Assembly: GCA_016218495.1 (NCBI GenBank)
Contig: JACRDU010000097.1
Location: 841-64,840, forward strand
DNA from: Elusimicrobiota bacterium
GTDB taxonomy: Bacteria > Elusimicrobiota > Elusimicrobia > UBA1565
DNA length: 64,000 nucleotides
Reading direction: 5' to 3'
Below the pieces are notes generated by a model, which was not told the DNA's origin, did not search any database, and saw only the letters and a list, made by a program, of their open reading frames with translations. Shown here piece by piece: positions 27,220 to 42,783 of the stretch. A program made the translations under genes and the position numbers. How positions within the stretch are numbered: the stretch's first letter is position 1; the number at the start of each line of letters is the position of its first letter.

Positions 27220-29091
27220 GTGAACGAGCGCCCCAACTCCCGCCTGCCCCTGCTCTGCCTGACCGCTCTGGGCGTCGTCTACGGGGACATCGGGACCAGC
27301 CCGCTCTACGCGATGCGCGAGTGCTTCCACGGCCCGCACGCCGTGGCGGTCACGCACGACAACGTGCTGGGCGTGCTCTCGCTCATCACCTGGGCGCTCA
27401 TCATGCTGGTCACGCTCAAATACCACGTCTATGTGCTGCGCGCCGACAACAAGGGCGAGGGCGGCATCCTGGCCCTGATGGCCCTGGCCCGCTCCACCCC
27501 GCTCTCGCCGCGCCAGCAGAAAGCCGTCCTCGGGCTGGGGCTCTTCGGCGCGGCCCTGCTCTACGGCGACGGGATGCTGACCCCGGCCATCTCGGTGCTG
27601 AGCGCCATCGAGGGCTTGGAGGTGGCCACCCCGTTCTTCGCCCCCTATGTGGTGCCAATCACCGTGGCCATCCTGGTCGGGCTGTTCCTGCTCCAGCGCC
27701 GCGGCACCACCGGCATCGGCGTGGTGTTCGGCCCGCTCATCCTGGTCTGGTTCCTATTCCTGGCGGGGCTCGGCGTCCACAGCCTGTGGCAGGGTCCCTC
27801 CGTGCTGGCCGCCGTGAACCCCGCCTACGCGCTGCGCTTCCTCCTGGAGAACGGCCTGCACGGCTACCTGGTCCTCGGAGCCGTGTTCCTGGTGGCCACC
27901 GGCGGCGAGGCGCTCTACGCCGACCTGGGCCATTTCGAGGAGCGCGCCATCCAGCTCGACTGGTTCGCCGCCGCGGGGCCCTGCCTGCTCGTCCATTATT
28001 ACGGCCAGGGGGCGCTGTTGCTGCGCGACCCCTCGGCGGCCCACAACCCCTTCTACATGCTGGTCCCCTCCTGGGCGCTCTACCCGGCCGTGGCCCTGGC
28101 CGCGATGGCCACCGTCATCGCCTCGCAGGCCGTCATCTCGGGCGTCTTCTCGCTGACCCGCCAGGCCGTACAGCTGGGCTTCCTGCCCCGCGCCCACGTG
28201 GTGCACACCTCGCAGCATGAGATCGGCCAGATATACATACCCGCCGTCAACTGGCTGCTGCTGGCCTCCACCATCGCCTTGGTGGTCGGCTTCAAGAGCT
28301 CCTCCAACCTCGCCTCGGCCTACGGCATCGCCATCTCGGTGACGATGGTCGTCACCACCATGCTCGCCCACTTCGTCTCCACGGGCCTGTGGGGCTGGCG
28401 GCGCGGCGTCGCCTGGGCCGTCACCGGGACCTTCCTGGCCGTCGACCTGGCCTTCCTGGGCGCGAACTCGGCCAAGGTGCTGCACGGCGGCTGGTTCCCG
28501 CTGGCCGCCGCGGCCGCCGTCGTGGCCATATTCACCACCTGGAAGACCGGCCAGGAGACCCTGGCCGCCCTGCAGCGCGAGGGGGCCCTGCCCCTGGCCG
28601 ACTTCGCCGCGCAGACGGCCGAGAGTTCGGTGGCCCGCGTGCCCGGCACGGCGGTCTTCCTGACCAGCACGCCGGGGCTGACGCCCAGCGCGCTGCTGCA
28701 CAACATGAAGCACAACAAGGTCCTGCACGCGCGCAACGTCTTCGTCACCGTGCGCACCGAGGACGTCCCGCGGATCCGCGACGCGGAACGCCTGTCCGTA
28801 TCGCACATCACCGGCGACTTCGTCCAGGTCTCGGTGCGCTTCGGCTTCATGGAGGACCCGGACCTGCCGCAGGTGATGGCCCGCCTGGCCGAGCACGGCC
28901 TCAAGCTGCGCCCGATGGACACGACCTACATCCTCAGCGACAACACCTTGGTGACGACCGAGGCCCGCCGCATGCCGCTCTGGCGCTTGCGCCTGTTCTC
29001 TTTCCTCTATAAGAACGCCGTCCGGCCCACCCAGTACTTCAACCTCCCCATCAACCGCGTCATCGAAATCGGCCGCCAGCTCCAAATCTAG
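27220..29091 (+). CDS. kup: KUP/HAK/KT-family potassium uptake transporter
   Basis: 623-aa ORF (GTG start). It has the hallmark N-terminal LGVVYGDIGTSPLY, 12 TM-like segments and a cytoplasmic C-terminal domain. Confidence 0.95.
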   Translation: MNERPNSRLPLLCLTALGVVYGDIGTSPLYAMRECFHGPHAVAVTHDNVLGVLSLITWALIMLVTLKYHVYVLRADNKGEGGILALMALARSTPLSPRQQKAVLGLGLFGAALLYGDGMLTPAISVLSAIEGLEVATPFFAPYVVPITVAILVGLFLLQRRGTTGIGVVFGPLILVWFLFLAGLGVHSLWQGPSVLAAVNPAYALRFLLENGLHGYLVLGAVFLVATGGEALYADLGHFEERAIQLDWFAAAGPCLLVHYYGQGALLLRDPSAAHNPFYMLVPSWALYPAVALAAMATVIASQAVISGVFSLTRQAVQLGFLPRAHVVHTSQHEIGQIYIPAVNWLLLASTIALVVGFKSSSNLASAYGIAISVTMVVTTMLAHFVSTGLWGWRRGVAWAVTGTFLAVDLAFLGANSAKVLHGGWFPLAAAAAVVAIFTTWKTGQETLAALQREGALPLADFAAQTAESSVARVPGTAVFLTSTPGLTPSALLHNMKHNKVLHARNVFVTVRTEDVPRIRDAERLSVSHITGDFVQVSVRFGFMEDPDLPQVMARLAEHGLKLRPMDTTYILSDNTLVTTEARRMPLWRLRLFSFLYKNAVRPTQYFNLPINRVIEIGRQLQI

Positions 29092-29174: not shown

Positions 29175-32100
29175 GTGGGCCCAATGACGCCGGCCGGTCT
29201 CCCCCATAGGCTCAACAAGAAAATCCGCGTTTCAGCCACACTTTCCCCAGTGAAGCGCGCAATCGCCTCCGCCCTGGCCGCCATCATGCTCGTGCTGTCC
29301 CCGGGCACCGGCTGCTGGCAGGCCATGGCGCAGGTCGTGACCCGCACCGGGCCCGCCGCCGCCCCGGCCCGGGTCGTCGTCGGGGCCCCCGGAGCGCTGG
29401 GCGCCTCTCCCACCCTTTCGGCCCCCACCCTCTCAGCTCCGTCCCTGTCCGTCACTTTGCCGTCTCCCGCCGCACCCACCGCCCGCGGTGCGGCATCGGC
29501 CTCCGCCGCGGCCGCGCAGTCGGCGGTTCCCGCGGGTCTCCCGGCCCCGGCGCGGGCCGCCGGAACGGTCTCAGCCTCCGCGGCGGCTCCCGCCGCCCGG
29601 GCCGCCGCGCAGACCCAGGGCCGCGAAGCGGTCTCGGCCGGCCTCAAGAATACCGTCAAGGCCGCCGCGCCTATGCTGGAGGCCGCCAAGTCCGGCTCCG
29701 GCGGGGACGCGCACCGCGCCGGCATCCAGCTCGAGGAGCTGCTCTCCGGCGCTCCGCGCCGAGCCGCCTCGGACGCCGTCACCCCCGCCCCCGCCTCGCG
29801 CCTGCCGTCGTTCACCGGCAGAGCCCGCCTGGGCTCGGCCCGGGTCATCGGGGCCGCGCCCTCCGCCGTGATGAACGCCGTGGCCGCGCCGGCGGCCCCG
29901 CGCCCCTCCCTGGCCTCCCGCTTCTCCGCCTCCTTCCGCCGCGCCTTCCTATTTATTAGGAAGACGGCCGCCGTCGCCACCTTGGCGGCCTTCCTGCCCG
30001 TCTTCGGGATGTTCGGCGGCACCCCCTTCCAGATTCTCCCCCCGGTCACGGTCCAGGCGCAGCTGCCCGGGCAGGTTCCGGGCGCCCAAGTCCCCGTCGC
30101 CCCGCCCCAGGCCGGCGTCCCGCAGGCCCAGGTCCCCACCGCGCAGGCCCCCGTCGTCCAGGCATCCCCCATAGAGGTCTCCGTCCCTCAGACGGTGCAG
30201 GGCCGTACCGTCGGAGAGTCGGTCACCTACTCGGTGACCCTGCGGAACACTTCGAACGCCCCCGTCACGGTCTCCTCGGTTCGGACGGCCGTCGAAGAGG
30301 CGCTGCCCTGGACCCTAGAGGTGACCGGCGACGCCGACGCGGCCCCGCTGACCTTGGCCCCGGGCGAATCGAAGACCCTCACCTTCACCCTCCTGCCCTT
30401 CGACTCGGGCAAGCTGGTGCTCGAAGGCGCGGAGCTCACCATCCCGACCTCCGACCCCGAGAAGCCCATCGTCGTCAAGATCCCCTCCACCACCTTCGAG
30501 GTGGCCAGCGTCCTCACCCCGGACTGGAAGGAGAAGGGCTTCAAGGACCTGGCCGAGCTGCGCCGGGGCGAGACCCCGTCGCTCTTGTGGCTCTTGGCCG
30601 TCCCCGTGGCCCTGCTGGCCATCGCCGGCGCCGAGCGCCTGCTCGCCTCCCGCCGCCGAGGCTCCGAGCCCGTCGTCCATAACGGCCCCGCCCTCGACGC
30701 CGCCCGCACCCGGCGGGCGCGTCTGGAAGAGGGCGCGGCGTCCATGGACGCCCGGCAGTTCTACGGCGAGACCCTGACCCTGGTGGACCGTCTGCTCTCC
30801 GACCTGCGCGGCATGCCGCGCCGCGAGCGCGCCCCCGCCCAGCTCCTGAAGGAAGCCGCTGAGAAGTACTCCAGCGGCCAGCTCTCCGTCGCCCGCCGCA
30901 CCCTCGAGACAGCCGAGGCCGCCCTGCACGGCGGCAGGGCCGACTCCCCCGAGGCCCGCCGCCAGGTCCTCGTCGCCCTCAGAGAGCTCCTGGCCGACCT
31001 CTCAGACCAGCCCCGGCCCGAGGCGCCGAAGGCCGGCCTTGCCGGGCTGGCCGCTCTGCTCGGCACCGCCACCGTCTCCTTCGCCCACCCGTGGGCGCTG
31101 CTGCTCCTGCTGCCCATAGCCGGCTGGGCGCTGCACAAGTGGCGCCAGAGCAGGACCGAAGGCTGGGCCACGACGGCCCCCATCCCCGCGCAGACCGGTT
31201 GGAAGGCGCGCCTGCGCTGGGTCCCCGGCCTGCTGCGCTCTTCGGCCATCGCCCTGACCATGCTGGCGCTGGCCGGGCCGCAGCTGGGCGTCAAGCGCAC
31301 CGAGACCTACATCCCCTCCAGCGACACGGTGATCGCCGGGGACGTCTCGGGCTCGATGAGCGGGGCGCGCCTCGACGGCCTCAAGCGCGCGGTGAAGGAC
31401 TACCTGGTCGAGCAGCGCCGCGGCAGCAACAACCGCGTCGGCCTGACCACCTTCTCCGACGAGCCCTACCTGGCGGTCAGCCTCACCACCGACTACGACG
31501 CGCTGATCAGCCGCATCAAGGAGACCGAGACGGAGGGCTCCACCGCCGTCGGCAAGGCGATGCTCTCCTCCATCAGCCACTTCCTCGAGCTCAACATCAT
31601 GCAGCTCGACCAGTCCGACGCCCGGGTCGTCGAGATGCGCAAGATGGTCCTGGGCGAGGACCTCTCCGGCGCGCTGGAGTTCGCCAAGCGCCACCCGGAC
31701 CTGCTGCAGAAGGTCCTGCAGCCCGACCACACCAAGATCCTGGTGGTCTTCACCGACGGCGAGTCCAACACCGGCATCGACCCCGTCGCGGCCGCGAAGA
31801 TCGCCAAGCAGCTGGGCATCAAGGTCTACACCGTCGGCATCCAGATCGGCTCCGGCGAGCAGGCCTTGAAGGACGTCGCGCAGATCACCGGAGGCATCTA
31901 CTTCCGCGCGGAGGACGCCGACGGGATGCGCAACGCCCTGCTCGACATCTCCCGCCTCGAGAAGTCGCCCTCGCTGGTCCGCTCCCAGGTGGCGGTCAAG
32001 GACCTGACCACCCTGCTGGCGCTGCTGGCCCTGCTCTCGGTGACGCTGGAGGTCGGGCTGAGCTCCACCAAGCTCCGCACCCTGCCGGCCTTCATCCTGG

Positions 32101-35100
32101 CCGGGCTGATGGGCTTCTCGGCCGTCCAGGGGCCCGCGCCCCAGCCCCAGGGCGCCGCCCCCCAGGCGCAGGCGTCCGTGGACGCCCCGCGGGGGATCAT
32201 CGAGCGCCTGCCCCTCTCCGGCGTCCCGCAGGAGATGGCGGAGGGCAACGCCCTCTATCTGCAGGGCCGCTACGCCGACGCCGTGAAGCGCTATGGGCAG
32301 GCCCTGGAGAGCCACCCCGACGTCCCCGCCCTCTACTTCAACCTCGGCAACGCCTACCTGCGCCTGGGCGACGTCGAGCGCGCGGCCCGCGCCTACGGCC
32401 GCTTCCTGGAACTGGAGAAGGACCCCAAGGCCGCCTCCGAAGCCATCTACAACCTCGCCAACGGCGCGCTGATGAAGCAGGACGCCGAGAAGGCCATCGA
32501 GCTCTACCGCGAGGCCCTGCGCCGCGACCCGTCGAACGCCTCGGCCAAGTGGAACCTCGAGGTCGTGATGCGGCTCATGGAGGAACAGCAGAAGCAGCAG
32601 GGCCAGGACGGCAAGCAGCAGCAGAAGCAGAAAAAGGGCAAGAAGGGCCAGAAGGGGCAGAAAGGCCAGCAGGGACAGCAGCAGGGGCAGAAGGGCGACC
32701 AGCAGGGCGAACCCGGCGACCAGGACGGCGAGCCGGGCGACCAGCAGGGGAAGCCCGGGGACAAGCAGGGCAAGCCCGGCGACAAACCGGGCTCCGACGC
32801 CAAGCCCTCGCAGGGCGAGCGCGACAAGGGCGTCGACGGGCTCATCCAGGAGCAGGGCAAGGCCGAGCAGGACGGCAAGAACGGCCAGCGCGGCGCCGTC
32901 CCCCGCAAGGGCTCCGGCGTCTGGGGCTTCAGCCTCGCCGGCCTGGGCGCGGCCGCCGCGGGCTTCCAGGCCCCGCTCTGGCTCGGCGTCGCCCTCGTCG
33001 CCGTCCCGCTGGTGGCCGCCCTCGTGGCCTACGCGGTGCGCAAGAAGATCTCCGCCGCGAAGTCCCTGGCTCCCCGCGAAGCGCCCAAGCGCTTCGCCGA
33101 CTGGGCCGGGAAGCGGCGCTGGACCGCCAAGCTCATGCTCCTCTTGGCCTCCGTGCTGGGCCTGGCCATCACCGCCGGCGACCCGGTCTGGGGCACCCGG
33201 GACGCGCGCCTCAACTTCGGGGGCAAGGACGTCATCGTCGCCGCCGACGTCTCGGCCTCGACGCTCTACGCCGAGGACGGCCGCGGGGCGCGCATCGAGG
33301 GAGAGCTCTCCGAGTTCGTCACCCGCATGCAGGGCACCGACCGCATCGGGCTGGTCGTCTTCGCCGGCAAGGCCCGCACCGCCTCCCCCCTCTCCTCGGA
33401 CTACGGCACCTTCGAGTTCAAGGTCGGCCGGCTGGAGCGCGAAGCCCGCGGGCTGAGCTCCGGCTCGGACCTGAGCTCCGCCATCGAGCATGCCGCCAAG
33501 GTCTTCAACGGGGCCAAGAAGGTCGGGGACCGCCAGCGCATCCTCATCGTGGTCTCCGACGGTGAAATATTCGACAAGGACCTGAGCAAGGCCATCGACG
33601 CCGCGCGCAAGGCCGGCATCACCATCTACGCCATCGGGGTCGGGGACGCCGGCGGCACGCGCATCGCCCTGCCCAAGGCCGACGGCAGCGGCTCCGAGTA
33701 CCTGATCGACGAGAAGACCGGCCAGCCGGCCATGACCCGGCTCAACGAGGAGACCCTGCGCCAGCTCGCCTCCGCCACCGGCGGCTACTATTTCCGCTCC
33801 AGCGAGAAGGCCTCGATGGGCGGCATCCTCGGCAAGGTCGCGGCCATGTCGCAAGGCTCTGAGACGGACGCCATCAAGACCCCGCGCGGCATCGGTTATG
33901 TCTTCCTCACCCCGGCCCTGCTGCTGCTGCTGCTCGAGGCCTTCCTGCCCGCCGTCCCCCTGCTCCGGGGCCGCCGGGTCAAGGCCGCGCCTGCCGCCGC
34001 CCCCTCCGCTCCGGCCAAGACCCTCAACGGCGGCGCCCTGCTCGGCCTGGCCGCCATCCCCCTCGGCCTCTGGCCCCAGGTCCTCCCCTTCGCCGCCCTC
34101 ACCGCCGTGCTGGCCGGAGTCCTGCTCTACGACATCTCCACGCGCGGGGCCCTGACCCGCGCGGCCCGCGCCTGGCTGGGCCGCAAGGCCCCCGCCGAAG
34201 GCCTGCAGAAGGACCTCTTCGCGCTCTTCGACCGCCCCGGAGACACCCGCGAGCGCTGGCGGACGACCGACCACGCCGCCGTGAGCTCCTTCGTCGAGGG
34301 CTGGCGCGCGTCCTCTTCCGAGACGCGGCGCGTGCTCGCGCGCAAGGCCGCGGCCGACCCAGAGCTCTGGCGCGAGAAGCTCGTGGCCGCGCTGCTGGCC
34401 GAGTCGGCCTGGCCCGCCAAGAGGGGCTCCGACGAAGCGCTCGACGCCGTCCTCTCCGCCTTGAACACGGCCAAGCGCGGCAGCCTGCTCCCCCTGGAGC
34501 CCATCGTCCTCGGGGTGCTGGACCGCCGCGCCGAGCTGCCCTGGCTGAGCCATCCGGCCGTGCTGCGCCCGCTCTCGCGCCTGGCGGCCGCCGAGCTCGA
34601 CGACTCCGCCCCGGCCTCCCGCGCGGCCCTGCAGTCCCTGGCCTCGGAAGCGGACGGAGCCGTCGCTTCCGCCGCCCGCGAGGCGCTCGGCGACCAGGCG
34701 CCGGCCTTCAAGCCCACGCGGGCCCGCCGCATCGCCCGCTCCGGCGCCTTGGTCTTCCTGGCGGCCATGATGGGGCTGACCGGCCTGGCCGGCTATAAGA
34801 CCGTGGAGTTCGACGCCGCGCGCCGCCAGGCAGCCGAGACCGCCCTGTCGATCTTCTACGGCGAGGACCTCTTCATCTTCACCGACGCCTATTCCGACGA
34901 GCGCATCCCGCGCGAGGTCCTGCCCGTCCTCAAGGAGTGGCACGCCACGGGGAAGGCGGCCGCCTCGGACCTGGCCAAGGCGCTCGAGGTGCTGCGCTCC
35001 TCGCCCGACCCCAAGGCGGACAACATCCTCGAGGCTGTCTTCAAGCGCGCCGACCTGATGCCGCTCACCGACGCCTCGGAGAACCTGCTCCTCAAGACCC

Positions 35101-38100
35101 TCATCGAGCGCGACAACGAGCCCGTCTGGCGCTTCCTCAACGAGTACATGGCGTCCAACGGGGAGAACGAGAAGGCCACGGCCCGCCTCATCAAGATGAT
35201 CCGCATCGGCGCGGAGCTCGGGTCGGAAGACGTCTTCCAGAACACCTTCCATTTCCTCAAATCCCCCAACCAGACTGTCCGCCAAGAGGCCGCCCAGGCC
35301 ATCCGCGCCTCGCTGCAGGCCCCGGAGCGCGCGGGCCAGCTCGCGGCGCGCCTGAAGGCCGTCACCGAAAAGCACCCCGAGGACCCGACCATCAACATGT
35401 GGGTGGCGTTCTTCACGCTCGACCGGCTGGCCGCGGCCGACGCCAACACCATCGACCTCGGCCCGCTCGACGACCTGCTCACCGTCGCCCTCAAGAACGC
35501 CGCCAAGGGCGACGCGGCTCGCGCCGCGCTCATCGCCCAGGTGAAGCCCGGCGAAGAGGACAAGCTCCCGCCTCCCGCGCTGGTCCAGGCCTTCGGGCTG
35601 ATGGAGCGCTCCCTGGACCGCGCCGCGGGCCTGGGCGCCAACACCGACCCGCTTTCCCTGGCCGCGCGCAAGCAGGCCGACGTGGCCACGAAGAACATCA
35701 TCGTGGAGGGCCGGGCGGTCTTCCCCGAGCTCAAGCTCCAGCTCCAGAACAACGGCGTGATGCTCCCCGACCCCGCGCCGCAGCCCAGCTCCCAGGGTCC
35801 TGAGGACTCCTACGACGACTACCACGGGCACGGCGGCTACGGCGGCTCCTATGTGAATCCCGACGCCGTCTACCGCCCGACCTACACCCAGCAGCACCTG
35901 AAGGCCCTGGCCCAGGCCGTCGCCGACGCCCGTGACGCCGCCGGGGAGAAGCTCACGCCGCAGCAGCGCGAGTTCGCCGACCGGGCGCTCAAGTCCATCG
36001 AGGCCATGCTCTCCGCCGGCGCCAAGGCCGGGATGCCCGAGGGCGGCACCGCCGCCGAGGCGGCGGCCGACGACGTTAACTCCGTCCTGGTCGAAGGGAC
36101 GCAGAAGCTGCCCGGCAGCGCCTTCCTCGCCGAGCTGCGCGCGGCCAAGCTCGCCCCCGACGCCAAGGTCGGCAACGAGAAGTCCCGCGCCTACCGACAG
36201 TCCTACGCGGCCGAGGACCTGCTCAAGATACGCGCCTTCCTCATCGACCTCCTCTCCAGGGGGACGGCCGCCGAAGGGGGCAAGTCCTCGGCCTTGAATT
36301 GGAGCCAGAAGCAGTTCCTCGCCGACGCCATCACCAGGCTCGACGCCGCCATCGCGAAGCACTACCCGGCCGCCGCGGCCCTGATCCCCGCGGACCCGAG
36401 CGCCGCCCCGCTCGCCGCCTTCACGGCCGCGGCCAAGGCCGGCGACGAGGCCGCCCTGACCAAGGCCCTGACCGAACTCAAGGCCGTCTACGACGCCGCT
36501 CCGGTGAAGGACGTTGTCCTGGCGCGCTTCAAGGCCGCCTATCCCCAGTCGGCCGTCGGGTACAACGACTCCGTGCGCATGCCCGTCCTGCGGTTCTGGC
36601 TGGACCGCCTGGCCGAGGCCGACGGGGCCAAGCTCGACCGGGAAGGCGTGCTCGAGATACTGAAGGCCGTCTCCCCGGACAAGATGGAGGCCGGGAAGGC
36701 CCTCGCCGCATACGACGCGCTGGCCAAAGCCCTCCAGGCTTCCGCCACGCCCGCCCCCGCCCTGGTCGAGTTCGCCCAAGAGCAGGTCCGCCTCGGCGCC
36801 AAGCGCGCCTATGACGGCGCGAAGGACGCGCTGGACGCCAAGGCCTTCGCGGCCCTTCAGAACACCCTTCGCGCCGAGCGCCTGCTCACCAAGGACCTGG
36901 CGATGCGCGAAGTGGTCAAGCCCGTCCATCTGCGGGCCCTCGAAGCCTCCCTGAAGGCCTCGAAGAAGGCCCCCGCCTGGACCGTCTCCACCGTGGCGAA
37001 GCTGCAGGCCCTCACCAAGGCCGCCGGCGTGCCCGACGGCGGGACCACCGCGGAACGCGCCGCCGATGCCGTCAACGAGATGCTCGGGAAGGGCGACAAC
37101 GCCTTCCCCAGCGCCGCATGGTACGACGCGCTCCGGGCCGAAGGCCTGGCCCCCGCCGGCAGCGCCCGCGGCTGGGAGCGGGCCCTGGCCCAGAGCTACA
37201 CCCCCGACCAGCTCCGCGCGCTCAACGCCTTCATCAACCGGACCCTCTCCTCGGGCCAAGGCTGGGACTATTCCGGGAAACCCTCGGAACTCACCCCCGC
37301 GCAGGGCAAGGCGCTGGCCGAGATGGCCGAAGCCCTCGATTCGGCCCTGGCGCAGTTCTATCCGGACCAGGCCGCCCTCCAGCCCGCCGCCCTCGGCCGC
37401 CTCGTCGCGAACGGCGACCATGCCGCCGCCTCGGCCCGGCTCGCCGCCGCCGGCTCGCCCGCCGAGGCCCTGGCCATCCTCGACGCCGCCGCCGAGCGCA
37501 GCGCGGGCTCTGCCGAGGCGCAGAAGCTGGCGGCCCGCCTGCTGGCGGAGGCCCTCTCCGGCAAGAACGGGCCCGGCCTGCTCGAAAAAGAGGAGTCCCT
37601 GGGCTTCCTGCACGAGCTCGGCGAGCGCCTGGGCGCGCGCGAGGGCGAGGCCCTGGGCCAGCTCTCCTCGGCGCTGCGCGCCGCCCCCAATCCGACGCTG
37701 AAGGCCTTCATCGCCGCCGCCGTCGACGCGCGCGCCGAGGAGCTCGCCGACTCCATCAAGGGCGCGCCCGGCGCCGAACAGGCCCTGATCGAGGCCGGCG
37801 TCGTCACCAAGCGCGGCTACAGCTCGGACACCCGCTCGTCGTTCACCCAGCGCCACCTGCGCGGGCTGCAGGCCGAGGCCGCCCGGCTCGCCTCGGTGAA
37901 GGGCCTTACCGAGGAACAGTCCTCCGCCGTCGACAAGGCCCAGAAGCTCCTGCCCGACCTGCTCAAGGCGGCGGTGGACGCGGGAGTCCCCACCGGCACG
38001 GCCCCGGGCGACATCGCCGCGGAGCGCCTCTCCGACATCGTCTACGAGGGGCACATGCTCTTCCCGGGCAGCCGCTTCGTCGACGAGCTGCGCGCCGCCA

Positions 38101-39419
38101 AGCTCCTCCCTCCCAAGTCCGGGAGCAACGCGGTCGACGACAAGGACATGCCCAAGACCTGGAGCAAGGCCGAGGTCGCCGCCCTGCGCGGCTTCCTCCA
38201 GGGAGTCCTCTCCTCCGGGCAGGGCTGGGACCAGGGCACCGGGACCCGCGAGCTCACCAAGGAGGAGAAGGCCTACCTCGAGAATACGCTCAAGTCCCTC
38301 GATTCGCTCATCTCCAACTACGACGCCCCCAAGCCCGCCGCGAAGAGCCTGCACGGCGGCGCCTTCGGGCTGTTGGCCGTCGGGGCCGTAGGCCTGGGCT
38401 CCACGCCCGCGGCGGCGGCCTCGGGCCTGCTGCTGCCCGTGCTGGCCCTGGCCGCCGCGGCCTTCGCCGTCTATGCCGGCTGGCTCATCTTCAAGGACCG
38501 CGCGCCGCAGCAGGCGCCCGCCGCGCCGCGCCTGGGCCCTTCGCAAGAGGTGCTGGCGCGCTACAAGAAGCTCGACCTGGCCGCCAAGAAGCTGGCCGCG
38601 TCGCTGACCGAGGGGAAGTTCCGCTCCCGCCTGGTCGGCCCCAGCGGCTTGAGCTTCGCCGAGCTGGCCGCCTACCAGGGCGAGGACATCAAGTCCATCA
38701 ACTGGAAGGCCTCGGCCAAGTCCGACGACCTGCTCGTCAACCGCTACGAGCAGGACAAGGACATGCCGCTCATGCTGCTCATCGACCTGTCCGCCTCCGG
38801 GGACTTCGCGGCCGGCGGCACCGAGAAGCGGCGCGTCATCGAGGACGCCGCGGCCCTGCTGGCCCTGACGGCGGCCCGCCGCAACATCCGCGTCGGCGCC
38901 CTGCTCTTCACCGACCGCATCGAAGCCTTCATCCCGCCCGCCGGCGGCCAGCGCCATGCCTGGGAGCTGGCGCGCCAGGTCATCGACAAGGCCCCCCAGG
39001 GCAGCAAGACCGACCTCAAGCTGGCGCTCGACTTCGCCAACACCCGCTTCCGGAGCCGCGCCATGGTGGTCCTGCTCTCCGACCTGCTCGGGGAAGGCTG
39101 GGAGTCCTCTTTGACCGCCGTGGCCAAGCGCCACGACTTCCGCGCGGTGCGCGTGGCCGACCCGGCCGAGGTGAAGCCCCTGCCCGACGCCGGGCTCGTC
39201 CTGATGCGCGACGCCGAGGCCGGCTCCCAGGGCTGGGCGGACACTTCGAGCCGCTCGTACCGCGAAGCCGCCGGACAGGCCGTGAAGGGCCGCGAACGCC
39301 GCATCGCCGCCGCCCTCGAGGCCGCCCGCACCCGGGCGCTGACGCTTTACACGGACCAAGACCCCATCGAGGAACTGTCGCGCAGGTTCCTGGCCAAGAA
39401 GGCCGGAGCCCGAGACTAA
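29175..39419 (+). CDS. Giant (3,414-codon) polytopic fusion protein: BatD-like Ig module, BatA-like vWA, BatC-like TPR, BatB-like vWA, long helical/HEAT-like region with 3x repeat, and C-terminal DUF58
   Basis: A single stop-free frame of 10,245 nt, with recognisable modules all in that frame (listed as sub-features below). Possible starts are GTG 29175, ATG 29184 or GTG 29250 (VKRAIASALAAIMLVL…). The gene ends in TAA 39417-39419, 11 nt before the moxR ATG. The 2,848-aa antisense ORF is G/R/A/L-rich low-complexity junk. Confidence 0.85.
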   Translation: MGPMTPAGLPHRLNKKIRVSATLSPVKRAIASALAAIMLVLSPGTGCWQAMAQVVTRTGPAAAPARVVVGAPGALGASPTLSAPTLSAPSLSVTLPSPAAPTARGAASASAAAAQSAVPAGLPAPARAAGTVSASAAAPAARAAAQTQGREAVSAGLKNTVKAAAPMLEAAKSGSGGDAHRAGIQLEELLSGAPRRAASDAVTPAPASRLPSFTGRARLGSARVIGAAPSAVMNAVAAPAAPRPSLASRFSASFRRAFLFIRKTAAVATLAAFLPVFGMFGGTPFQILPPVTVQAQLPGQVPGAQVPVAPPQAGVPQAQVPTAQAPVVQASPIEVSVPQTVQGRTVGESVTYSVTLRNTSNAPVTVSSVRTAVEEALPWTLEVTGDADAAPLTLAPGESKTLTFTLLPFDSGKLVLEGAELTIPTSDPEKPIVVKIPSTTFEVASVLTPDWKEKGFKDLAELRRGETPSLLWLLAVPVALLAIAGAERLLASRRRGSEPVVHNGPALDAARTRRARLEEGAASMDARQFYGETLTLVDRLLSDLRGMPRRERAPAQLLKEAAEKYSSGQLSVARRTLETAEAALHGGRADSPEARRQVLVALRELLADLSDQPRPEAPKAGLAGLAALLGTATVSFAHPWALLLLLPIAGWALHKWRQSRTEGWATTAPIPAQTGWKARLRWVPGLLRSSAIALTMLALAGPQLGVKRTETYIPSSDTVIAGDVSGSMSGARLDGLKRAVKDYLVEQRRGSNNRVGLTTFSDEPYLAVSLTTDYDALISRIKETETEGSTAVGKAMLSSISHFLELNIMQLDQSDARVVEMRKMVLGEDLSGALEFAKRHPDLLQKVLQPDHTKILVVFTDGESNTGIDPVAAAKIAKQLGIKVYTVGIQIGSGEQALKDVAQITGGIYFRAEDADGMRNALLDISRLEKSPSLVRSQVAVKDLTTLLALLALLSVTLEVGLSSTKLRTLPAFILAGLMGFSAVQGPAPQPQGAAPQAQASVDAPRGIIERLPLSGVPQEMAEGNALYLQGRYADAVKRYGQALESHPDVPALYFNLGNAYLRLGDVERAARAYGRFLELEKDPKAASEAIYNLANGALMKQDAEKAIELYREALRRDPSNASAKWNLEVVMRLMEEQQKQQGQDGKQQQKQKKGKKGQKGQKGQQGQQQGQKGDQQGEPGDQDGEPGDQQGKPGDKQGKPGDKPGSDAKPSQGERDKGVDGLIQEQGKAEQDGKNGQRGAVPRKGSGVWGFSLAGLGAAAAGFQAPLWLGVALVAVPLVAALVAYAVRKKISAAKSLAPREAPKRFADWAGKRRWTAKLMLLLASVLGLAITAGDPVWGTRDARLNFGGKDVIVAADVSASTLYAEDGRGARIEGELSEFVTRMQGTDRIGLVVFAGKARTASPLSSDYGTFEFKVGRLEREARGLSSGSDLSSAIEHAAKVFNGAKKVGDRQRILIVVSDGEIFDKDLSKAIDAARKAGITIYAIGVGDAGGTRIALPKADGSGSEYLIDEKTGQPAMTRLNEETLRQLASATGGYYFRSSEKASMGGILGKVAAMSQGSETDAIKTPRGIGYVFLTPALLLLLLEAFLPAVPLLRGRRVKAAPAAAPSAPAKTLNGGALLGLAAIPLGLWPQVLPFAALTAVLAGVLLYDISTRGALTRAARAWLGRKAPAEGLQKDLFALFDRPGDTRERWRTTDHAAVSSFVEGWRASSSETRRVLARKAAADPELWREKLVAALLAESAWPAKRGSDEALDAVLSALNTAKRGSLLPLEPIVLGVLDRRAELPWLSHPAVLRPLSRLAAAELDDSAPASRAALQSLASEADGAVASAAREALGDQAPAFKPTRARRIARSGALVFLAAMMGLTGLAGYKTVEFDAARRQAAETALSIFYGEDLFIFTDAYSDERIPREVLPVLKEWHATGKAAASDLAKALEVLRSSPDPKADNILEAVFKRADLMPLTDASENLLLKTLIERDNEPVWRFLNEYMASNGENEKATARLIKMIRIGAELGSEDVFQNTFHFLKSPNQTVRQEAAQAIRASLQAPERAGQLAARLKAVTEKHPEDPTINMWVAFFTLDRLAAADANTIDLGPLDDLLTVALKNAAKGDAARAALIAQVKPGEEDKLPPPALVQAFGLMERSLDRAAGLGANTDPLSLAARKQADVATKNIIVEGRAVFPELKLQLQNNGVMLPDPAPQPSSQGPEDSYDDYHGHGGYGGSYVNPDAVYRPTYTQQHLKALAQAVADARDAAGEKLTPQQREFADRALKSIEAMLSAGAKAGMPEGGTAAEAAADDVNSVLVEGTQKLPGSAFLAELRAAKLAPDAKVGNEKSRAYRQSYAAEDLLKIRAFLIDLLSRGTAAEGGKSSALNWSQKQFLADAITRLDAAIAKHYPAAAALIPADPSAAPLAAFTAAAKAGDEAALTKALTELKAVYDAAPVKDVVLARFKAAYPQSAVGYNDSVRMPVLRFWLDRLAEADGAKLDREGVLEILKAVSPDKMEAGKALAAYDALAKALQASATPAPALVEFAQEQVRLGAKRAYDGAKDALDAKAFAALQNTLRAERLLTKDLAMREVVKPVHLRALEASLKASKKAPAWTVSTVAKLQALTKAAGVPDGGTTAERAADAVNEMLGKGDNAFPSAAWYDALRAEGLAPAGSARGWERALAQSYTPDQLRALNAFINRTLSSGQGWDYSGKPSELTPAQGKALAEMAEALDSALAQFYPDQAALQPAALGRLVANGDHAAASARLAAAGSPAEALAILDAAAERSAGSAEAQKLAARLLAEALSGKNGPGLLEKEESLGFLHELGERLGAREGEALGQLSSALRAAPNPTLKAFIAAAVDARAEELADSIKGAPGAEQALIEAGVVTKRGYSSDTRSSFTQRHLRGLQAEAARLASVKGLTEEQSSAVDKAQKLLPDLLKAAVDAGVPTGTAPGDIAAERLSDIVYEGHMLFPGSRFVDELRAAKLLPPKSGSNAVDDKDMPKTWSKAEVAALRGFLQGVLSSGQGWDQGTGTRELTKEEKAYLENTLKSLDSLISNYDAPKPAAKSLHGGAFGLLAVGAVGLGSTPAAAASGLLLPVLALAAAAFAVYAGWLIFKDRAPQQAPAAPRLGPSQEVLARYKKLDLAAKKLAASLTEGKFRSRLVGPSGLSFAELAAYQGEDIKSINWKASAKSDDLLVNRYEQDKDMPLMLLIDLSASGDFAAGGTEKRRVIEDAAALLALTAARRNIRVGALLFTDRIEAFIPPAGGQRHAWELARQVIDKAPQGSKTDLKLALDFANTRFRSRAMVVLLSDLLGEGWESSLTAVAKRHDFRAVRVADPAEVKPLPDAGLVLMRDAEAGSQGWADTSSRSYREAAGQAVKGRERRIAAALEAARTRALTLYTDQDPIEELSRRFLAKKAGARD
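30171..30510 (+). other. Giant ORF module: Ig-like beta-sandwich (BatD/CARDB/DUF11-like) followed by a TM helix
   Basis: IEVSVPQTVQGRTVGESVTYSVTLRNTSNAPVTVSSV…LTLAPGESKTLTFTLLP…IPSTTFEVAS, then LLWLLAVPVALLAIAG. The assignment is by pattern and is tentative. Confidence 0.45.
31080..31925 (+). other. Giant ORF module: BatA-like N-terminal TM pair plus vWA domain
   Basis: FAHPWALLLLLPIAGWAL… (BatA-type N-terminus), a MIDAS DVSGS at nt 31341-31355, …VGLTTFSDEPY…EGSTAVGKAM…ILVVFTDGESNTG…IKVYTVG…. Confidence 0.75.
32238..32560 (+). other. Giant ORF module: TPR repeats (BatC-like)
   Basis: AEGNALYLQGRYADAVKRYGQALESHPDVPALYFNLGNAYLRLGDVERAARAYGRFLELE…AEKAIELYREALRRDPSNASAKWNL. Confidence 0.75.
32581..32830 (+). 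repeat. In-frame Q/K/G/D/P low-complexity tract, including four tandem 21-nt repeats (32706-32789)
   Basis: …QQKQQGQDGKQQQKQKKGKKGQKGQKGQQGQQQGQKGDQQ, then GEPGDQD-GEPGDQQ-GKPGDKQ-GKPGDKP. The units start at 32706, 32727, 32748 and 32769. Confidence 0.9.
32964..33810 (+). other. Giant ORF module: BatB-like TM pair plus second vWA domain
   Basis: FQAPLWLGVALVAVPLVAALVAY…, a MIDAS DVSAS at nt 33246-33260, …RIGLVVFAGKARTASPL…GSDLSSAIEHA…ILIVVSDGE…ITIYAIGVG…GGYYFRS. Confidence 0.75.
35871..38333 (+). repeat. Three divergent tandem copies of a ~310-350-aa helical module inside the giant ORF
   Basis: The conserved cores are at 35871-36368, 36912-37364 and 37836-38333. Examples: …TQQHLKALAQ…AGMPEGGTAAEAAADDVNSV…LRAAKLAPD…IRAFLIDLLSRG…AIAKHYP; …VHLRALEA…AGVPDGGTTAERAADAVNEM…LRAEGLAPA…LNAFINRTLSSGQGWD…ALAQFYP; …TQRHLRGLQA…AGVPTGTAPGDIAAERLSDI…LRAAKLLPP…LRGFLQGVLSSGQGWD…LISNYD. 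Confidence 0.8.
38545..39416 (+). other. Giant ORF module: DUF58 (vWA-like, MoxR-associated) domain, preceded by TM helices
   Basis: …YQGEDIKSINWKASAKSDDLLVNRYEQDKDMPLMLLIDLSASGDF… (DLSAS at nt 38784-38798), then …VGALLFTDRIEAFIPP…SKTDLKLAL…AMVVLLSDL…. The preceding hydrophobic stretch FGLLAVGAVGLG…LLLPVLALAAAAFAVYAGWLIF lies at ~38350-38500. Confidence 0.8.
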
Positions 39420-39430
39420 AGGAGCCGAAC

Positions 39431-41251
39431 ATGAAAACCAAGACCCTTGAACGGACCGAGACGCTGCTGGCCATGCTGGTGGCCGCCGCCCTCGTCTCCC
39501 CGACGCCGGCGGCCGCGCAGGCCATGCGCACCGCCGCCCCCGCGGCACGGACCGGCCTCTCCGGCGTCGGCGCGGCCGGCTCCGTCACGGTCTCCCCGAG
39601 CGCGGCGTCCCTGGCCCCGACGGCCCCCGGGCTCGCTCCCGTGCTGCCCTCCGCCTCGGTATCCCTGCCGCAGGTCTCCCCGACGGCCAGGCCCGCCGCC
39701 GCCGCCCCCGCGCAGGCCGGAGGACTGCCGGCCCGGGCCTCGGCGGCCGCCCCCGCCGCGGCACCGGTGACCGTTAACGGCGCCCGGGCGGCCAAGGCCC
39801 TCTCCGCCTCCGCTTCTCCCATCGGCGAAGTGCTGAGCGGCATGCCCGAGGCCTCCAAGGCCGCGCCGTCGGCGTCCTTCTCCGCCGGGGTCTCCCTCGA
39901 GGACGCCATGACCCGCCGCGGCAGCCGGGCCGGTTCTGACGCCGTCGTCCCCATCCCCCCGCGCACGATGCGCGGCAGCCTGCTCGCCCGCCCCAACGGC
40001 GCGCTCAACGCGGTCGGGACGGAGGACTGGGTCCCGCTGGCGCAGGCGGTCCCCGCCCCCAGGCCGGGAGGCGCGCTGGCCCTGGCCGCGGCCGCCACGA
40101 AGGACATGCTGGGCACGACCGCCGGCAAGCTGGCCCTGCTGGGGCTCGGCGCCGCGGTGGGGCTCTTGGCGCTGCACGCCTACCTGCCCGCGGCGGTGGC
40201 CTCGCTGTCGCTGTTGCTGATGTCCGGCACGCTGGCGCGTACCCCCGCCCCCGAGGCGGCCCCCGAGGACGCGGCGCTGACCGCCGAAGTGAAGGAGGTC
40301 TCCGGGCTCATCGGCAAGCTGCGCGCCGAGGTCGGGAACGTCATCGTCGGCCAGCAGGAGATGGTGGACTCCATCATCATGGCGATGATCGCCAACGAAC
40401 ACCTCCTCCTCGAAGGCGTGCCGGGCGTGGCGAAGACCGCCACCATCAAGACCTTCGCCGCCGCCACCGGGGCCGACTTCCAGGTCATCCAGGGCACGCC
40501 CGACAAGATGCCCGCCGACATCCTGGGCGCTGAGATCCTGCAGACCGACCAGGCCACCGGCCAGCGCGTGATGAAGCTTGAGAAGGGCCCCATCTTCGCG
40601 CAGTTCGTCCTGGCCGACGAGATCAACCGCATGATGCCGAAGACCCAGGCCGCTCTCCTGCAGGCCATGCAGGACCGCATGGTCTCCATCGGGCGCGAGA
40701 CCCTGCCCCTGCCCAAGCCCTTCCTGATGCTGGCCACGATGAACCCGCTCGAACAGGAAGGCGTCAACGTGATGCCTGAAGCGCAGCTGGACCGCTTCAT
40801 GTTCAAGGTCATCGTCCCCCAGCCCAACCGCGAGGACCGCAAGCGCATCAACGAGATCAACCGCAAGCGCGAGAAGCCCAAGGCGTCGAAGGTCGTCAGC
40901 CTCGAGGACCTCGAGCGCGCCACGGCCCTGGCCGAGCGCGTGGCCCTGAGCGCCGGGATGTCCGAGTACATCCAGGACATCCTCGACGCCGCCCAGGACC
41001 CGTTTAAGTACGGGGTGGGCCAGAAAGGCCTCGTCGAACAGGCGATGGTCACCCGCGCCTCCATCATGATGGAGAAGGCCGCGCGCATCCAGGCCTTGAT
41101 GAACGGACGATCCTTCGTCACGGCGGAGGACGTCATGAAGGTGGCGCCCAAGATCCTGCGCCACCGCATCATCCTCAGCTACGCGGCCGGCGAGATGACG
41201 ACCGACCAGCTCATCGCGGAGATCCTGTCCACGCTCAAGATCCCGAGCTAG
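39431..41251 (+). CDS. MoxR-family AAA+ ATPase with ~275-aa N-terminal signal/Ala-Pro-Ser-rich/TM extension
   Basis: Last 606 codons of ORF 37118..41251, with AAAGGAG (39418-24) 6 nt before ATG 39431. The N-terminus reads MKTKTLERTETLLAMLVAAALVSPTPAAAQA…, with a hydrophobic segment LALLGLGAAVGLLALHAYLPAAVASLSLLLMSG. The MoxR core follows: VIVGQQEMVDSIIMAMIANEHLLLEGVPGVAKT (Walker A), FVLADEINRMMPKTQAALLQAMQD (Walker B), and …ILRHRIILSY. Confidence 0.9.
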   Translation: MKTKTLERTETLLAMLVAAALVSPTPAAAQAMRTAAPAARTGLSGVGAAGSVTVSPSAASLAPTAPGLAPVLPSASVSLPQVSPTARPAAAAPAQAGGLPARASAAAPAAAPVTVNGARAAKALSASASPIGEVLSGMPEASKAAPSASFSAGVSLEDAMTRRGSRAGSDAVVPIPPRTMRGSLLARPNGALNAVGTEDWVPLAQAVPAPRPGGALALAAAATKDMLGTTAGKLALLGLGAAVGLLALHAYLPAAVASLSLLLMSGTLARTPAPEAAPEDAALTAEVKEVSGLIGKLRAEVGNVIVGQQEMVDSIIMAMIANEHLLLEGVPGVAKTATIKTFAAATGADFQVIQGTPDKMPADILGAEILQTDQATGQRVMKLEKGPIFAQFVLADEINRMMPKTQAALLQAMQDRMVSIGRETLPLPKPFLMLATMNPLEQEGVNVMPEAQLDRFMFKVIVPQPNREDRKRINEINRKREKPKASKVVSLEDLERATALAERVALSAGMSEYIQDILDAAQDPFKYGVGQKGLVEQAMVTRASIMMEKAARIQALMNGRSFVTAEDVMKVAPKILRHRIILSYAAGEMTTDQLIAEILSTLKIPS

Positions 41252-41272
41252 ACTGGCGCAGGCCGGAACGGA

Positions 41273-41305
41273 CGGCCGGGCCGAGAGGCCCGGCCGTTTG
41301 CTTTG
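41273..41305 (+). terminator. Rho-independent terminator after moxR
   Basis: A perfect 10-bp GC stem CGGCCGGGCC-gaga-GGCCCGGCCG followed by TTTGCTTTG, starting 22 nt after the moxR stop. Confidence 0.75.
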
Positions 41306-41313
41306 ATATCGGG

Positions 41314-42783
41314 ATGGCGGACGCCGCAGAGCCGGAGGAAGGAGCCGAACTGGTCGAGCGCGGGTCTTTCCGCATCGACCGCCGCCGAGCCCTCGAGAAG
41401 CTCAGCCAGTACCAGCTGGGCAACCGCGCCCACTTCCTGCTCCCCTGGGTCCGCTTGGCCGCCCTGTCCGGGGCCTCGGAGGTGGGCCTGAAGCGCTTCG
41501 AGTTGGGGCTGCTACTCGAATTCGACGGCCGCCCGCTCGAGGCCGGCGTGCTCAAGAACCCCTATATGGCGCTGCTCGAGGAAGGCCTCGAGGATGAGGC
41601 ACGCGGCCGCTGCCTGGCGTACGGCCTGCTCGGGGCGCTGCGCGCCGGCGCCGTCAGCGTGGTCGCCGAGTCGGGCTCGGGGGCCAAGCGGCTGCGCCTG
41701 TGCGTCTCGGACCTGACCAAGGAGGACTCGGTCCCCGACGACTCCGACGAGGGGCGCACGATGATATGGGTGCACTGGAACGACGCCGGGCAGGTGGAGG
41801 CCCGCTGCGGCGCGGCCTTCGCCGCGCTCAGCGAGCGCTGCGCCCTGCTCAAGACGGCGCTCCGGATGGACGGCGTCCTCCATGCGTCCCGCCCGGCCCC
41901 CGCCGACGCGCCCTTCCTGCGCCTCGATGAGACGACGGCGCCTGAGGCGCTGCGCCCCCGGCTCGGTACGGGGCGCGTCCGGGGCTTCATCAAACCGCTC
42001 CACGGCACCCGGGACTCCGACGGCTATCTGTACTCGCACGGGGTGCTGGCCGAGGCCATCCGGTTCCCTGCGACCCTGGCCCCAGTGGAAGTCCACCTCG
42101 AGTCGGACGACTTCCGCCTGAACGCCGGGCTCTCCGGCGTCGTGCGCGACGGGTCTTCCGAGCCGGCCCTGCACCTGATGGACCTGAGCCCGCAGTCTCT
42201 GGTCGCCCACCTGTGCGCCCAGCGCAAGGCCCTGCCTAAGCCCCTGCATCCGCTCCGCCCGGATTCCCCGGGCCAGACCGCCCAGGAGACCATGACCGTC
42301 CTGCGCATGAACCTGGCGGGCAAGGGCGGGCCGCTGAGGCGCCTGCAGCGCTGGTCGGCCAAGCCCGGGGTCTCGGGACCCCGGGCGCGGGAATGGATGT
42401 CCGAGGGCCTGGTGCTCGCCTGGCTCCGGGGCGTAGCCTCGCGAGCCCTGCGCGACCCGGAGGAGGACAAGGGCCGTCTGGCGGGCCCGCTGTGGGACAC
42501 CCCGCTCTACATCAGCACGCAAGGCAAGCCCCTGACCCCGCGCGCCATCCGCAAGCAGGCCGGGGCCCGCGGCCGTCTGGTGGCCACCCTGCGCTGCGAG
42601 GAGGCGCCGGAAGGCACGGACTGGCCCTGGGTCGATTCCCCCGAAGACCCCTGCCTGAAGCGCATCCTGCCCGCCGGGGCGGAGCTCGAGGTCCGCTACG
42701 CCGACTCCTGGGCGGACCGCAAGGCCGCGCGCGCCCACGCCCTGCTGCTCGCCCGCGCCCGGCGCCGCTTGGGCCTCGAATGA
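41314..42783 (+). CDS. Hypothetical 489-aa cytoplasmic protein
   Basis: Well-composed ORF with high GC3 (MADAAEPEEGAELVERGSFRIDRRRALEKLSQYQLGNRAHFLLPWVRLAALSGASEV…). The 408-aa antisense ORF is junk-like. I cannot assign a family with confidence. Confidence 0.7.
   Translation: MADAAEPEEGAELVERGSFRIDRRRALEKLSQYQLGNRAHFLLPWVRLAALSGASEVGLKRFELGLLLEFDGRPLEAGVLKNPYMALLEEGLEDEARGRCLAYGLLGALRAGAVSVVAESGSGAKRLRLCVSDLTKEDSVPDDSDEGRTMIWVHWNDAGQVEARCGAAFAALSERCALLKTALRMDGVLHASRPAPADAPFLRLDETTAPEALRPRLGTGRVRGFIKPLHGTRDSDGYLYSHGVLAEAIRFPATLAPVEVHLESDDFRLNAGLSGVVRDGSSEPALHLMDLSPQSLVAHLCAQRKALPKPLHPLRPDSPGQTAQETMTVLRMNLAGKGGPLRRLQRWSAKPGVSGPRAREWMSEGLVLAWLRGVASRALRDPEEDKGRLAGPLWDTPLYISTQGKPLTPRAIRKQAGARGRLVATLRCEEAPEGTDWPWVDSPEDPCLKRILPAGAELEVRYADSWADRKAARAHALLLARARRRLGLE

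Follow-up and report, generated by a model that had tools for sequence, protein, structure and literature searches.

A two-gene locus of Elusimicrobiota encoding a giant protein that appears to fuse Bat-type vWA, TPR and DUF58 modules, and a leader-bearing MoxR ATPase

We analyzed a window of 64,000 nucleotides (nt), the whole stretch of DNA studied, from a genome assembly of an Elusimicrobiota bacterium; coordinates refer to its forward strand unless marked (-). The window contains a giant open reading frame (ORF) followed by a gene for a MoxR-type AAA+ ATPase. The giant ORF comprises 3,414 codons in a single stop-free frame (29175..39419), starting at a GTG at 29175 or an ATG at 29184 and ending in a TAA at 39417-39419. 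Directly 3' of this stop lies a Shine-Dalgarno (SD) sequence, AGGAG (39420..39424), and the ATG at 39431 of the MoxR gene (606 amino acids, aa; 39431..41251) comes 11 nt after the end of the giant ORF. The same arrangement is seen in 17 loci, and MoxR is translationally coupled to the giant ORF. An intrinsic terminator with a 14-bp stem, 11 G:C pairs and a T-rich tail (41269..41300) is found just after the MoxR stop; because this strong terminator is present, the transcription unit is taken to consist of the giant ORF and MoxR. Judged from its sequence, the giant product truly joins Bat-type modules in a single chain, in an order other than that of canonical bat operons, a conclusion that is supported by the analyses presented here.

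The giant protein begins with a signal-peptide-like hydrophobic region, H0 (aa 29-47; 29259..29315), which has a K/R-rich n-region, an AMA|Q site and family-averaged flank charges of +3.2 (N) and +1.1 (C). An Ala/Pro-rich low-complexity leader (aa 48-262) and a second region identified by hydropathy, H1 (aa 263-283), follow, and together they (29316..30023) have no Pfam match. Next comes an Ig-like beta-sandwich module of the CARDB/DUF11/BatD class (aa 343-428; 30201..30458), assigned from sub-threshold profile matches, and then the transmembrane (TM) helix H2 (aa 468-488) and a conserved helical segment (aa 494-626), recognized by hydropathy and conservation (30576..31052). The BatA-type module (31077..32066) consists of a double TM (aa 635-702), the domain vWA1 and a C-terminal TM helix, H5 (aa 944-964); vWA1 contains a complete metal-ion-dependent adhesion site (MIDAS), with D723-x-S-x-S at 31341-31355 together with T790 and D861. 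Three BatC-like tetratricopeptide repeats (TPRs; aa 1022-1121; 32238..32537) are followed by a Q/K/G/P-rich collagen-like spacer (aa 1137-1245; 32583..32909), defined by composition and by a weak NCBIfam match to SclB. The BatB-type module (32922..33962) comprises the hydrophobic segments H6a/H6/H7 (aa 1250-1336), vWA2 with a DVSAS motif (33246-33260) plus D1462, and the TM helix H8 (aa 1573-1596). Hydropathy and AlphaFold2 (AF2) then delineate a hydrophobic hairpin, H9a/b (aa 1619-1655), an all-helical linker domain (aa 1656-1852) and the TM helix H10 (aa 1855-1875), all within 34029..34799. The alpha-solenoid behind them, visible in repeats and in AF2 models, spans ~1,180 aa (aa 1878-3058; 34806..38348); its conserved head (aa 1878-2225) is HEAT/ARM-like, and three repeats, each of ~330 aa, follow at aa 2226-2406 (35850-36392), 2570-2738 (36882-37388) and 2887-3059 (37833-38351). 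A short H11 and H12 (aa 3060-3106; 38352..38492), drawn from hydropathy and AF2, form the last membrane crossing before the DUF58 domain, which has a vWA fold (aa 3168-3371; 38676..39287; PF01882 and AF2) and carries DLSAS at 38784-38798.

An earlier reading of this DNA, made from the letters alone and referred to here as the sequence-only reading, had placed these landmarks correctly apart from one TM helix. The frame is stop-free and of constant phase over its full length as it had stated, the motifs DVSGS (31341, D723), DVSAS (33246, D1358) and DLSAS (38784, D3204) are where it had put them, and its TPR position agrees with that given by Pfam. The three-copy repeat in the helical part was confirmed, with 30-39% identity between copies. 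The interleaving of the modules with TM segments, which that reading had estimated at ~12-13, was borne out by ~12-16 hydrophobic segments that are conserved across orthologs. Of the Ig-like module and TM helix that it had assigned to 30171-30510, the module lies within that range and the helix just outside it (30576-30638). Tandem repeats of 9 nt and 21 nt (32634-32783) make up the DNA coding for the collagen-like spacer that separates the TPRs from vWA2. BLAST recovered this spacer in no more than 8 of the 14 full-length orthologs in the alignment, so it is probably a length-variable linker.

At the GC content of the window (~71%) the length of an ORF is by itself no proof of a gene, and length alone is misleading here because a shadow ORF of 2,848 aa lies antisense to the giant gene (31002..39548, (-)). 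Codon-position composition was therefore considered along the giant ORF. In its frame, GC at third positions (GC3) is 0.89-1.00 from ~29.7 to 39.3 kb with no change of phase, and GC at first positions (~0.7) exceeds that at second positions (~0.5). Because this composition is uniform over 10.2 kb, the frame is a genuine coding frame, and ORF 29175-39419 is one continuous real gene. Only a single internal in-frame start has a strong SD sequence, at aa 918 within vWA1; internal translation starts at module boundaries were rejected, since this sole candidate does not lie at a boundary. Exact look-up of the giant protein (from the ATG start) in a protein collection gave no match.

A search with the solenoid segment against an index of 5.8 billion proteins returned five relatives, and both of the named ones were proteins from metagenome-assembled genomes (MAGs) of Elusimicrobia. 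A pattern scan of GTDB species genomes gave 19 loci, 18 of them labelled Elusimicrobia or Elusimicrobiota (one being Ca. Endomicrobium) and one labelled 'bacterium' only. The closest locus, L006, comes from a groundwater MAG and shows 56% identity over the query. When ORFs were reconstructed from stop to stop, 11 loci had complete single ORFs of 2,777-3,401 aa and two more were open at the 5' end. Module-by-module BLAST showed a collinear order in all reconstructed orthologs at 30-84% identity: Ig, TM/helical, BatA-vWA1, TPR, vWA2, linker, solenoid head, repeats and DUF58. These comparisons indicate that the fused giant with its MoxR is conserved within a clade of Elusimicrobiota and not a one-off. 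Named members of the family carry generic names only ('hypothetical protein', 'MoxR family ATPase'), and our literature searches found no paper describing the fused family. The sequence-only reading knew of no described protein with such an architecture. The architecture is not unique: a conserved family was already present, unnamed, in public MAGs, and pairwise bat fusions have been published.

These data also bear on whether the long ORF could be an artefact, either an assembly chimera or frameshifts merging separate bat, DUF58 and other genes, or else a decaying pseudogene. High GC does lengthen chance ORFs, but a single coding phase extends across all 10.2 kb of this one, and its lone internal start with a strong SD sequence falls away from any module boundary. 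The gene seems divided in some relatives, namely L003 (1530 + 1197 aa) and, through switches of frame, L019 and L015; yet in 11 MAG assemblies that are independent and come from different studies it is a complete single ORF. L019 and L015 sit on contigs of 3.1-3.8 Mb, and their preserved collinearity would fit indel errors. The sequence-only reading had asked that assembly and frameshift artefacts be excluded, and at least 11 independent MAGs were found to carry complete collinear ORFs together with MoxR. An artefact is effectively refuted, and we leave it almost no probability. Split genes in L003 were rejected as well, the junction coinciding with a 10-N scaffold gap. Several frame switches interrupt the otherwise collinear giant gene of L019 (6156-14965 of CP096137.1) and of L015 (8737-14581); they reflect indel errors or else genuine decay.

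The identity of the modules was examined with Pfam and with NCBIfam, the latter run tile by tile. Pfam upheld the vWA, TPR and DUF58 assignments of the sequence-only reading. VWA/VWA_2 matches of E=1e-35 to 4e-37 were obtained in three stretches of the giant protein, with vWA2 matching VWA_2 at E=3.8e-37 (best stretch aa 1353-1464). The TPRs matched TPR_2 (E=2.5e-16) and TPR_11 (E=1e-15) above cut-offs and were found in 14 of 14 orthologs, all of which also matched the DUF58 family PF01882 (window protein E=2e-53, 181.3 bits against a cut-off of 23.4, aa 3168-3371). With NCBIfam, the best match of vWA1 was VWA_BatA_Lepto (E=1.4e-33, 116 bits against a cut-off of 380), that of vWA2 was VWA_BatB_Lepto (E=5.2e-19, 68.5 bits against 350), and the best TPR match was TPR_BatC_Lepto (E=6.7e-21, 74.7 bits against 175); these three models are Leptospira-specific and have narrow cut-offs. 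The BatA N-terminal domain PF07584 reached 21.6 bits in the window protein against a cut-off of 25.9, and E<0.01 in 13 of 14 orthologs (best 6e-6). For the Ig module of the window protein, DUF7507 (E=1e-4) and BatD PF13584 (E=0.07, 14 bits against 24.1) were sub-threshold, as were all such matches, and NCBIfam gave choice_anch_D at E=3.8e-6. Across orthologs BatD PF13584 was the commonest match of this module (11 of 14, best E=5e-5), every one sub-threshold. The matches to the BatA N-terminal domain and to BatD that had been expected from profiles were seen, then, but below gathering scores in the window.

Hydropathy places a TM helix (H2) behind the Ig module. The BatA-type module has the arrangement TM, positive loop, TM, vWA with a complete MIDAS and C-terminal TM, and a second 2TM-vWA-TM unit, the BatB-type layout, is also present. 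In the 14-sequence full-length alignment the invariant residues include D723, S725, S727, T790 and D861 in vWA1, D1358, S1360, S1362 and D1462 in vWA2, and D3204, S3206, S3208 and D3303 in DUF58. No SH3 family, as would be expected of BatE (TPR + SH3), occurred among the Pfam and NCBIfam matches listed for the giant protein and its orthologs. DUF4381, the product of the usual gene before batA, was considered for H2 and the adjoining helical segment and was not among the matches listed even at E up to 1-5. Covalent fusion and re-ordering of Bat partners, as claimed by the sequence-only reading, are supported by the best module matches to BatA, BatC and BatB models, by the strength of the DUF58 match and by the position of DUF58 last with MoxR behind it. 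Its description of a whole operon within one ORF goes too far, as BatD is weakly supported and BatE/SH3 was not found.

An AF2 model of aa 2887-3414 had a pLDDT of 82.5, with the DUF58 domain mostly above 90 and folded as a vWA-like alpha/beta domain. Foldseek comparison of this model with vWA domains gave a probability of 1.0 and a TMt of ~0.6, the best matches being two crystal structures, that of Bacteroides BatB (3ibs) and that of a membrane protein related to aerotolerance (4jdu); further matches were to MDN1-MIDAS (8ql1) and to the NorD VWA in NorQ-NorD complexes (9qh8, 9qhe).

The large helical insert claimed by the sequence-only reading is real, and neither Pfam nor NCBIfam assigns it to a family: the 1,495-aa block aa 1616-3110 had no match above cut-off. 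HEAT_2 matched the solenoid at E=0.0024, below its cut-off. Searches of PDB sequences with profiles of aa 1656-2230 and 2226-2738 returned nothing significant, ARM entries appearing at E=0.1-0.3. The AF2 model of aa 1656-2570 was nearly all-alpha with a mean pLDDT of 86, and the linker domain was of high confidence. Against the PDB, Foldseek retrieved generic alpha-solenoids (karyopherins, cohesin HEAT subunits, Ctr9); for the karyopherins and cohesin HEAT subunits the probability was 0.9-1.0 and the TM-scores only 0.12-0.18. Because Foldseek gave only generic solenoids at such TM-scores, the modelled linker/solenoid region would be HEAT/ARM-like without a specific relative. Many residues of the linker and solenoid head are invariant, e.g. 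the motifs F-x3-D-x3-F-x3-Y-x-D-x-R-I, SPDPKADN and LKSPN, which argues for a functional domain rather than filler. An exhaustive phmmer search of 1.84 billion cluster representatives with aa 1656-2570 yielded only 44 relatives, of which ~13 were full-length (2,690-3,461 aa). Shorter natural forms exist, namely vWA2-solenoid-DUF58 (~1,900 aa), solenoid-DUF58 and solenoid only. Stand-alone linker and solenoid proteins of 783-1,530 aa were observed as well, namely P0004 (L001 10001-14593), P0022 and P0025; since these have neither vWA nor DUF58, the helical module also exists by itself. The host of P0004 has a GC of 57%, and ~340 nt remain 3' of the gene to the contig end, with no gene called there.

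The MoxR protein has a leader (aa 1-300) followed by AAA_3 (40400-40804) and AAA_lid_2 (41039-41224). AAA_3 (PF07726) was matched at E=6e-50 with 168.9 bits against 27, and AAA_lid_2 with 52 bits against 22.7. Walker A (GVPGVAKT), Walker B (DEINR), sensor 1 (ATQNP) and the Arg finger (PEAQxDRF) are conserved in 17 MoxR orthologs. An identical 606-aa protein is present in NCBI nr, and a contig index look-up of the gene gave no match. MoxR adjoins the giant gene 3' in all related loci whose sequence reaches that point. Among canonical MoxRs the nearest have 333-340 aa and 42-45% identity, and because the few named ones come from Bacteroidia or Rikenellaceae, a Bat affiliation of this MoxR fits. 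The window protein departs from the compact, soluble MoxR format (~330 aa without an N-terminal targeting sequence) in its length and in its 300-aa leader, and MoxRs of the family always carry an N-terminal extension, of 148-314 aa. The order within this extension is a start with K/R residues (MKK) and a hydrophobic region, mostly with an AxA-like site, then an uncharged Ala/Pro/Val-rich run of 23-73 aa and a conserved motif, approximately AMPNLSKAS...GAGTALEAALTGER. The uncharged run has a second hydropathy peak (KD 1.25-1.62) followed by R/K.

In the window protein the hydropathy profile of the leader shows two segments, a signal-peptide-like one (39461-39517) and a strong second one (40130-40228; aa 234-266). 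Among 73 extended MoxR relatives, 60 have a signal-peptide-like start and 53 an AxA-like site; the strong second TM is present in only eight, among them that of the window and those of a sub-clade with lengths of 606-656 aa. The sequence-only reading had called MoxR membrane-anchored. This is upheld for the window protein by its second TM but not for most relatives, which have a plain signal-peptide look and no clear second TM. We consider it more likely that the hydrophobic region and the uncharged stretch form a membrane hairpin or tether than that they act as an export signal. That the leaders of the giant protein and of MoxR are paralogous was rejected as a family feature (BLAST E=0.47). 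A hidden Markov model of the MoxR-leader motif run on the giant proteins gave 9.9 bits for L006 and a marginal 7.7-bit domain for the window, against a shuffled maximum of 7.0, and nothing for the other 12 orthologs.

Membrane topology was deduced from hydropathy, family-averaged flank charges and AF2. The TM1-TM2 loop before vWA1 carries +3.4 to +3.8 charges and the H6-H7 loop before vWA2 +3.9, and both are conserved. In BB0173, a BatA-type protein of Borrelia burgdorferi, the vWA domain has been mapped experimentally to the periplasm (PMC5700661). Because of the positive TM-pair loops and this BB0173 topology, vWA1 and vWA2 most likely face the periplasm by analogy. Three MIDAS sites serviced by one AAA+ ATPase, as proposed in the sequence-only reading, are unlikely in consequence, since the charge pattern and BB0173 leave DUF58 for MoxR; DUF58 would be the only vWA-fold module plausibly sharing a compartment with it. 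Further along the chain, the C-flank of H8 carries +4.9, the flanks of H9a/b are both positive (+4.0 and +3.5), as in a hairpin, and the N-flank of H10 has +3.3 against +1.7/-2.0 on its C-flank. From these flank charges of H8, H9a/b and H10 the solenoid is placed outside the cytoplasm. AF2 modelled H12 as a single helix and H11 as a low-confidence coil, and H11 averages ~13 aa across the family; as H12 alone is modelled as a helix and H11 is short, a single crossing with DUF58 inside is favored. A periplasmic solenoid with a cytoplasmic DUF58 is the topology we prefer on these models, though it is not secure.

Taken together, we lean towards the view that the locus is a two-gene operon for a single-chain Bat-type vWA/TPR/DUF58 envelope complex and its AAA+ motor. 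The giant chain would sit in the inner membrane with vWA1 and vWA2 periplasmic as in BB0173, and the cytoplasmic C-terminal DUF58 would plug the MoxR hexamer in the manner of the NorD VWA in NorQ. The NorQ pore is plugged by NorD, and the authors of that work proposed that MoxR/VWA pairs generally function in this way, with a vWA monomer as the plug of the AAA+ hexamer (PMC9976466). ATP-driven remodelling of DUF58 could be passed via the last TM helix to the periplasmic solenoid, and from there a signal might reach the two outward-facing MIDAS sites and control the metal-dependent binding of an envelope partner. Fusion would fix a 1:1 stoichiometry of the modules of the chain and ensure their joint assembly, and the hydrophobic leader would tether MoxR at the membrane beside its client. 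A stronger version, by analogy with integrins, is a bacterial inside-out mechanotransducer in which the MoxR ring pulls on DUF58 and, through a single TM and the solenoid arm, switches the two periplasmic MIDAS domains; we regard this as speculative and rather improbable.

Several observations weigh against this envelope complex with its cytoplasmic motor. The BatA, BatB, BatC and BatD matches all fall below the curated cut-offs of those models. The topology has no basis other than hydropathy, flank charge and AF2, and each of the hydrophobic stretches of 33-35 aa (H6a/H6, H9a/b, H11/H12) may cross the membrane once or fold back as a hairpin. A parity problem exists in the N-terminal third, where H0 and H1 both look N-in/C-out, and with a hairpin at H11/H12 the solenoid and DUF58 would share one side of the membrane. 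Of the extended MoxRs, 65 of 73 have no strong second TM and, taken at face value, would be exported ATPases. Leptospira bat mutants show no oxidative-stress phenotype, and the aerotolerance role of Bat systems is disputed (PMC3557215).

Two other arrangements of the C-terminal half were weighed on this evidence. The solenoid may instead be cytoplasmic with DUF58 and MoxR, leaving only the vWA domains in the periplasm and serving as a docking platform for MoxR or a client. Solenoids of the HEAT/ARM-like kind are typically cytoplasmic, and the Foldseek matches are all cytosolic or nuclear scaffolds; the whole MoxR-facing surface would then lie on the ATP side. However, two conserved violations of the positive-inside rule would be needed, with H9 as a single TM despite its +4.0/+3.5 flanks and H10 running out-to-in despite its +3.3 N-flank. 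Stand-alone DUF58 proteins often start with a TM hairpin, and H11 and H12 together (~47 aa) would have room for one, but AF2 does not form H11 as a helix and its family average is ~13 aa. We judge this topology possible but less likely than the preferred one. The other arrangement moves the working end out of the cytoplasm altogether: MoxR would be exported by its signal peptide and act on DUF58, solenoid and vWA domains in the periplasm. The K/R and hydrophobic N-termini of 60 of the 73 extended MoxRs, the AxA-like sites of 53 and the strong second TM in only eight point that way, and an H11/H12 hairpin with an in-to-out H10 would make DUF58 periplasmic. Yet the ATPase motifs are intact and conserved, and a periplasmic source of ATP is not known. 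The uncharged stretch of 23-73 aa, with its KD peak of 1.25-1.62 and the R/K behind it, is a possible stop-transfer or hairpin that would keep the AAA+ core inside, and in the window protein and its sub-clade a clear TM precedes that core. An exported MoxR is accordingly given a very small probability.

The genes flanking the operon were also inspected and are of ordinary chromosomal kinds. Upstream lie a kdp operon, a porin and kup, and downstream a 489-aa gene, PAS-GGDEF, proB and proA. Two K+ uptake systems are neighbors upstream (17991-29091): kup lies on the (+) strand, and kdpD/kdpB/kdpA are encoded on the (-) strand along with an OmpL-like porin. Related loci do not share this synteny. 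The 489-aa ORF (41314-42783, +) has a strong coding signature (GC3 0.92) just past the operon terminator. It was rejected as a part of the system, as it lies beyond the terminator, has no Pfam or NCBIfam match and has no homologue in any related locus. PAS-GGDEF was likewise rejected as a conserved partner, being found only in the window and in its closest relatives (L006, L005/L007). Eight loci of one sub-clade (L012 15375-16658, L020 16566-17915, L014, L015, L016, L019, L021 and L024) encode, on the same strand directly after MoxR, a ~440-aa metallophosphoesterase of the calcineurin-like type that is extended N-terminally by ~180 aa. It is absent from the window and may be a third component in those eight genomes.

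Bat/MoxR-DUF58-vWA clusters are widespread in the literature (Bacteroides, spirochaetes, Francisella), and more than 25 years on there is no agreed function, stoichiometry or topology for them. A natural fusion of nearly all components is strong genomic evidence for one physical complex and fixes its connectivity, and in the fused chain topology mapping and cryo-EM would have a target encoded by one gene. An explanation of the MoxR leader would show how an AAA+ motor couples to extracytoplasmic vWA domains. If the mechanotransducer were true, the fusion would be Rosetta-stone evidence that the separate Bat and DUF58 proteins of other phyla form one trans-membrane machine.

The closest known systems are the Bat clusters, arranged as moxR-DUF58-batA-batB-batC-batD-batE in Bacteroides fragilis and with homologues in Leptospira, Borrelia (BB0170-BB0176) and Francisella. 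The locus shares with them a MoxR AAA+ ATPase, DUF58, two 2TM-vWA-TM units with MIDAS, TPRs and an Ig-like/TM part. In canonical clusters each of these has its own gene, a few hundred codons long, and moxR leads, whereas here all non-ATPase parts lie on one chain of 3,414 aa, in the order BatD-like, BatA, TPR, BatB, further modules, DUF58 and, last, MoxR, which is the same in at least 11 relatives. The linker/solenoid of ~1,400 aa has no counterpart in Bat clusters, MoxR here has a hydrophobic leader, and BatE/SH3 was not detected. Pairwise bat fusions have been published, namely batB-batC in L. biflexa and BatD+TPR+SH3 in BB0170 (PMC5700661, PMC3557215). The new elements are the near-total fusion including DUF58, the linker/solenoid module of ~1,400 aa and the leader-bearing MoxR.

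The proposed machine also has parallels in other systems. BB0173 has the arrangement TM, positive loop, TM, vWA(MIDAS) and TM, with the same charge pattern as in both vWA modules here; it stands alone, however, and its final TM spans residues 310-328 (PMC5700661), in contrast to the two such units within the 3,414-aa chain. NorQ/NorD, CbbQ/CbbO and RavA/ViaA likewise pair a MoxR hexamer with an adjacently encoded vWA-fold MIDAS partner. Their partners are soluble proteins of 300-800 aa with the client enzymes cNOR, Rubisco and Nuo/Frd, whereas the vWA-fold partner here forms the C-terminus of a giant polytopic membrane protein. In Midasin/Rea1 (MDN1), the eukaryotic ribosome-assembly AAA+ protein, a very long helical linker carries at its distal end a MIDAS domain that docks on the AAA+ ring, which resembles the present arrangement. 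This likeness is offered as an analogy only, homology of the linkers not being supported by Foldseek. In MDN1 the AAA+ and MIDAS parts share one soluble, nuclear chain, while in the Elusimicrobiota locus the AAA+ protein is encoded by a separate gene and the chain is membrane-embedded.

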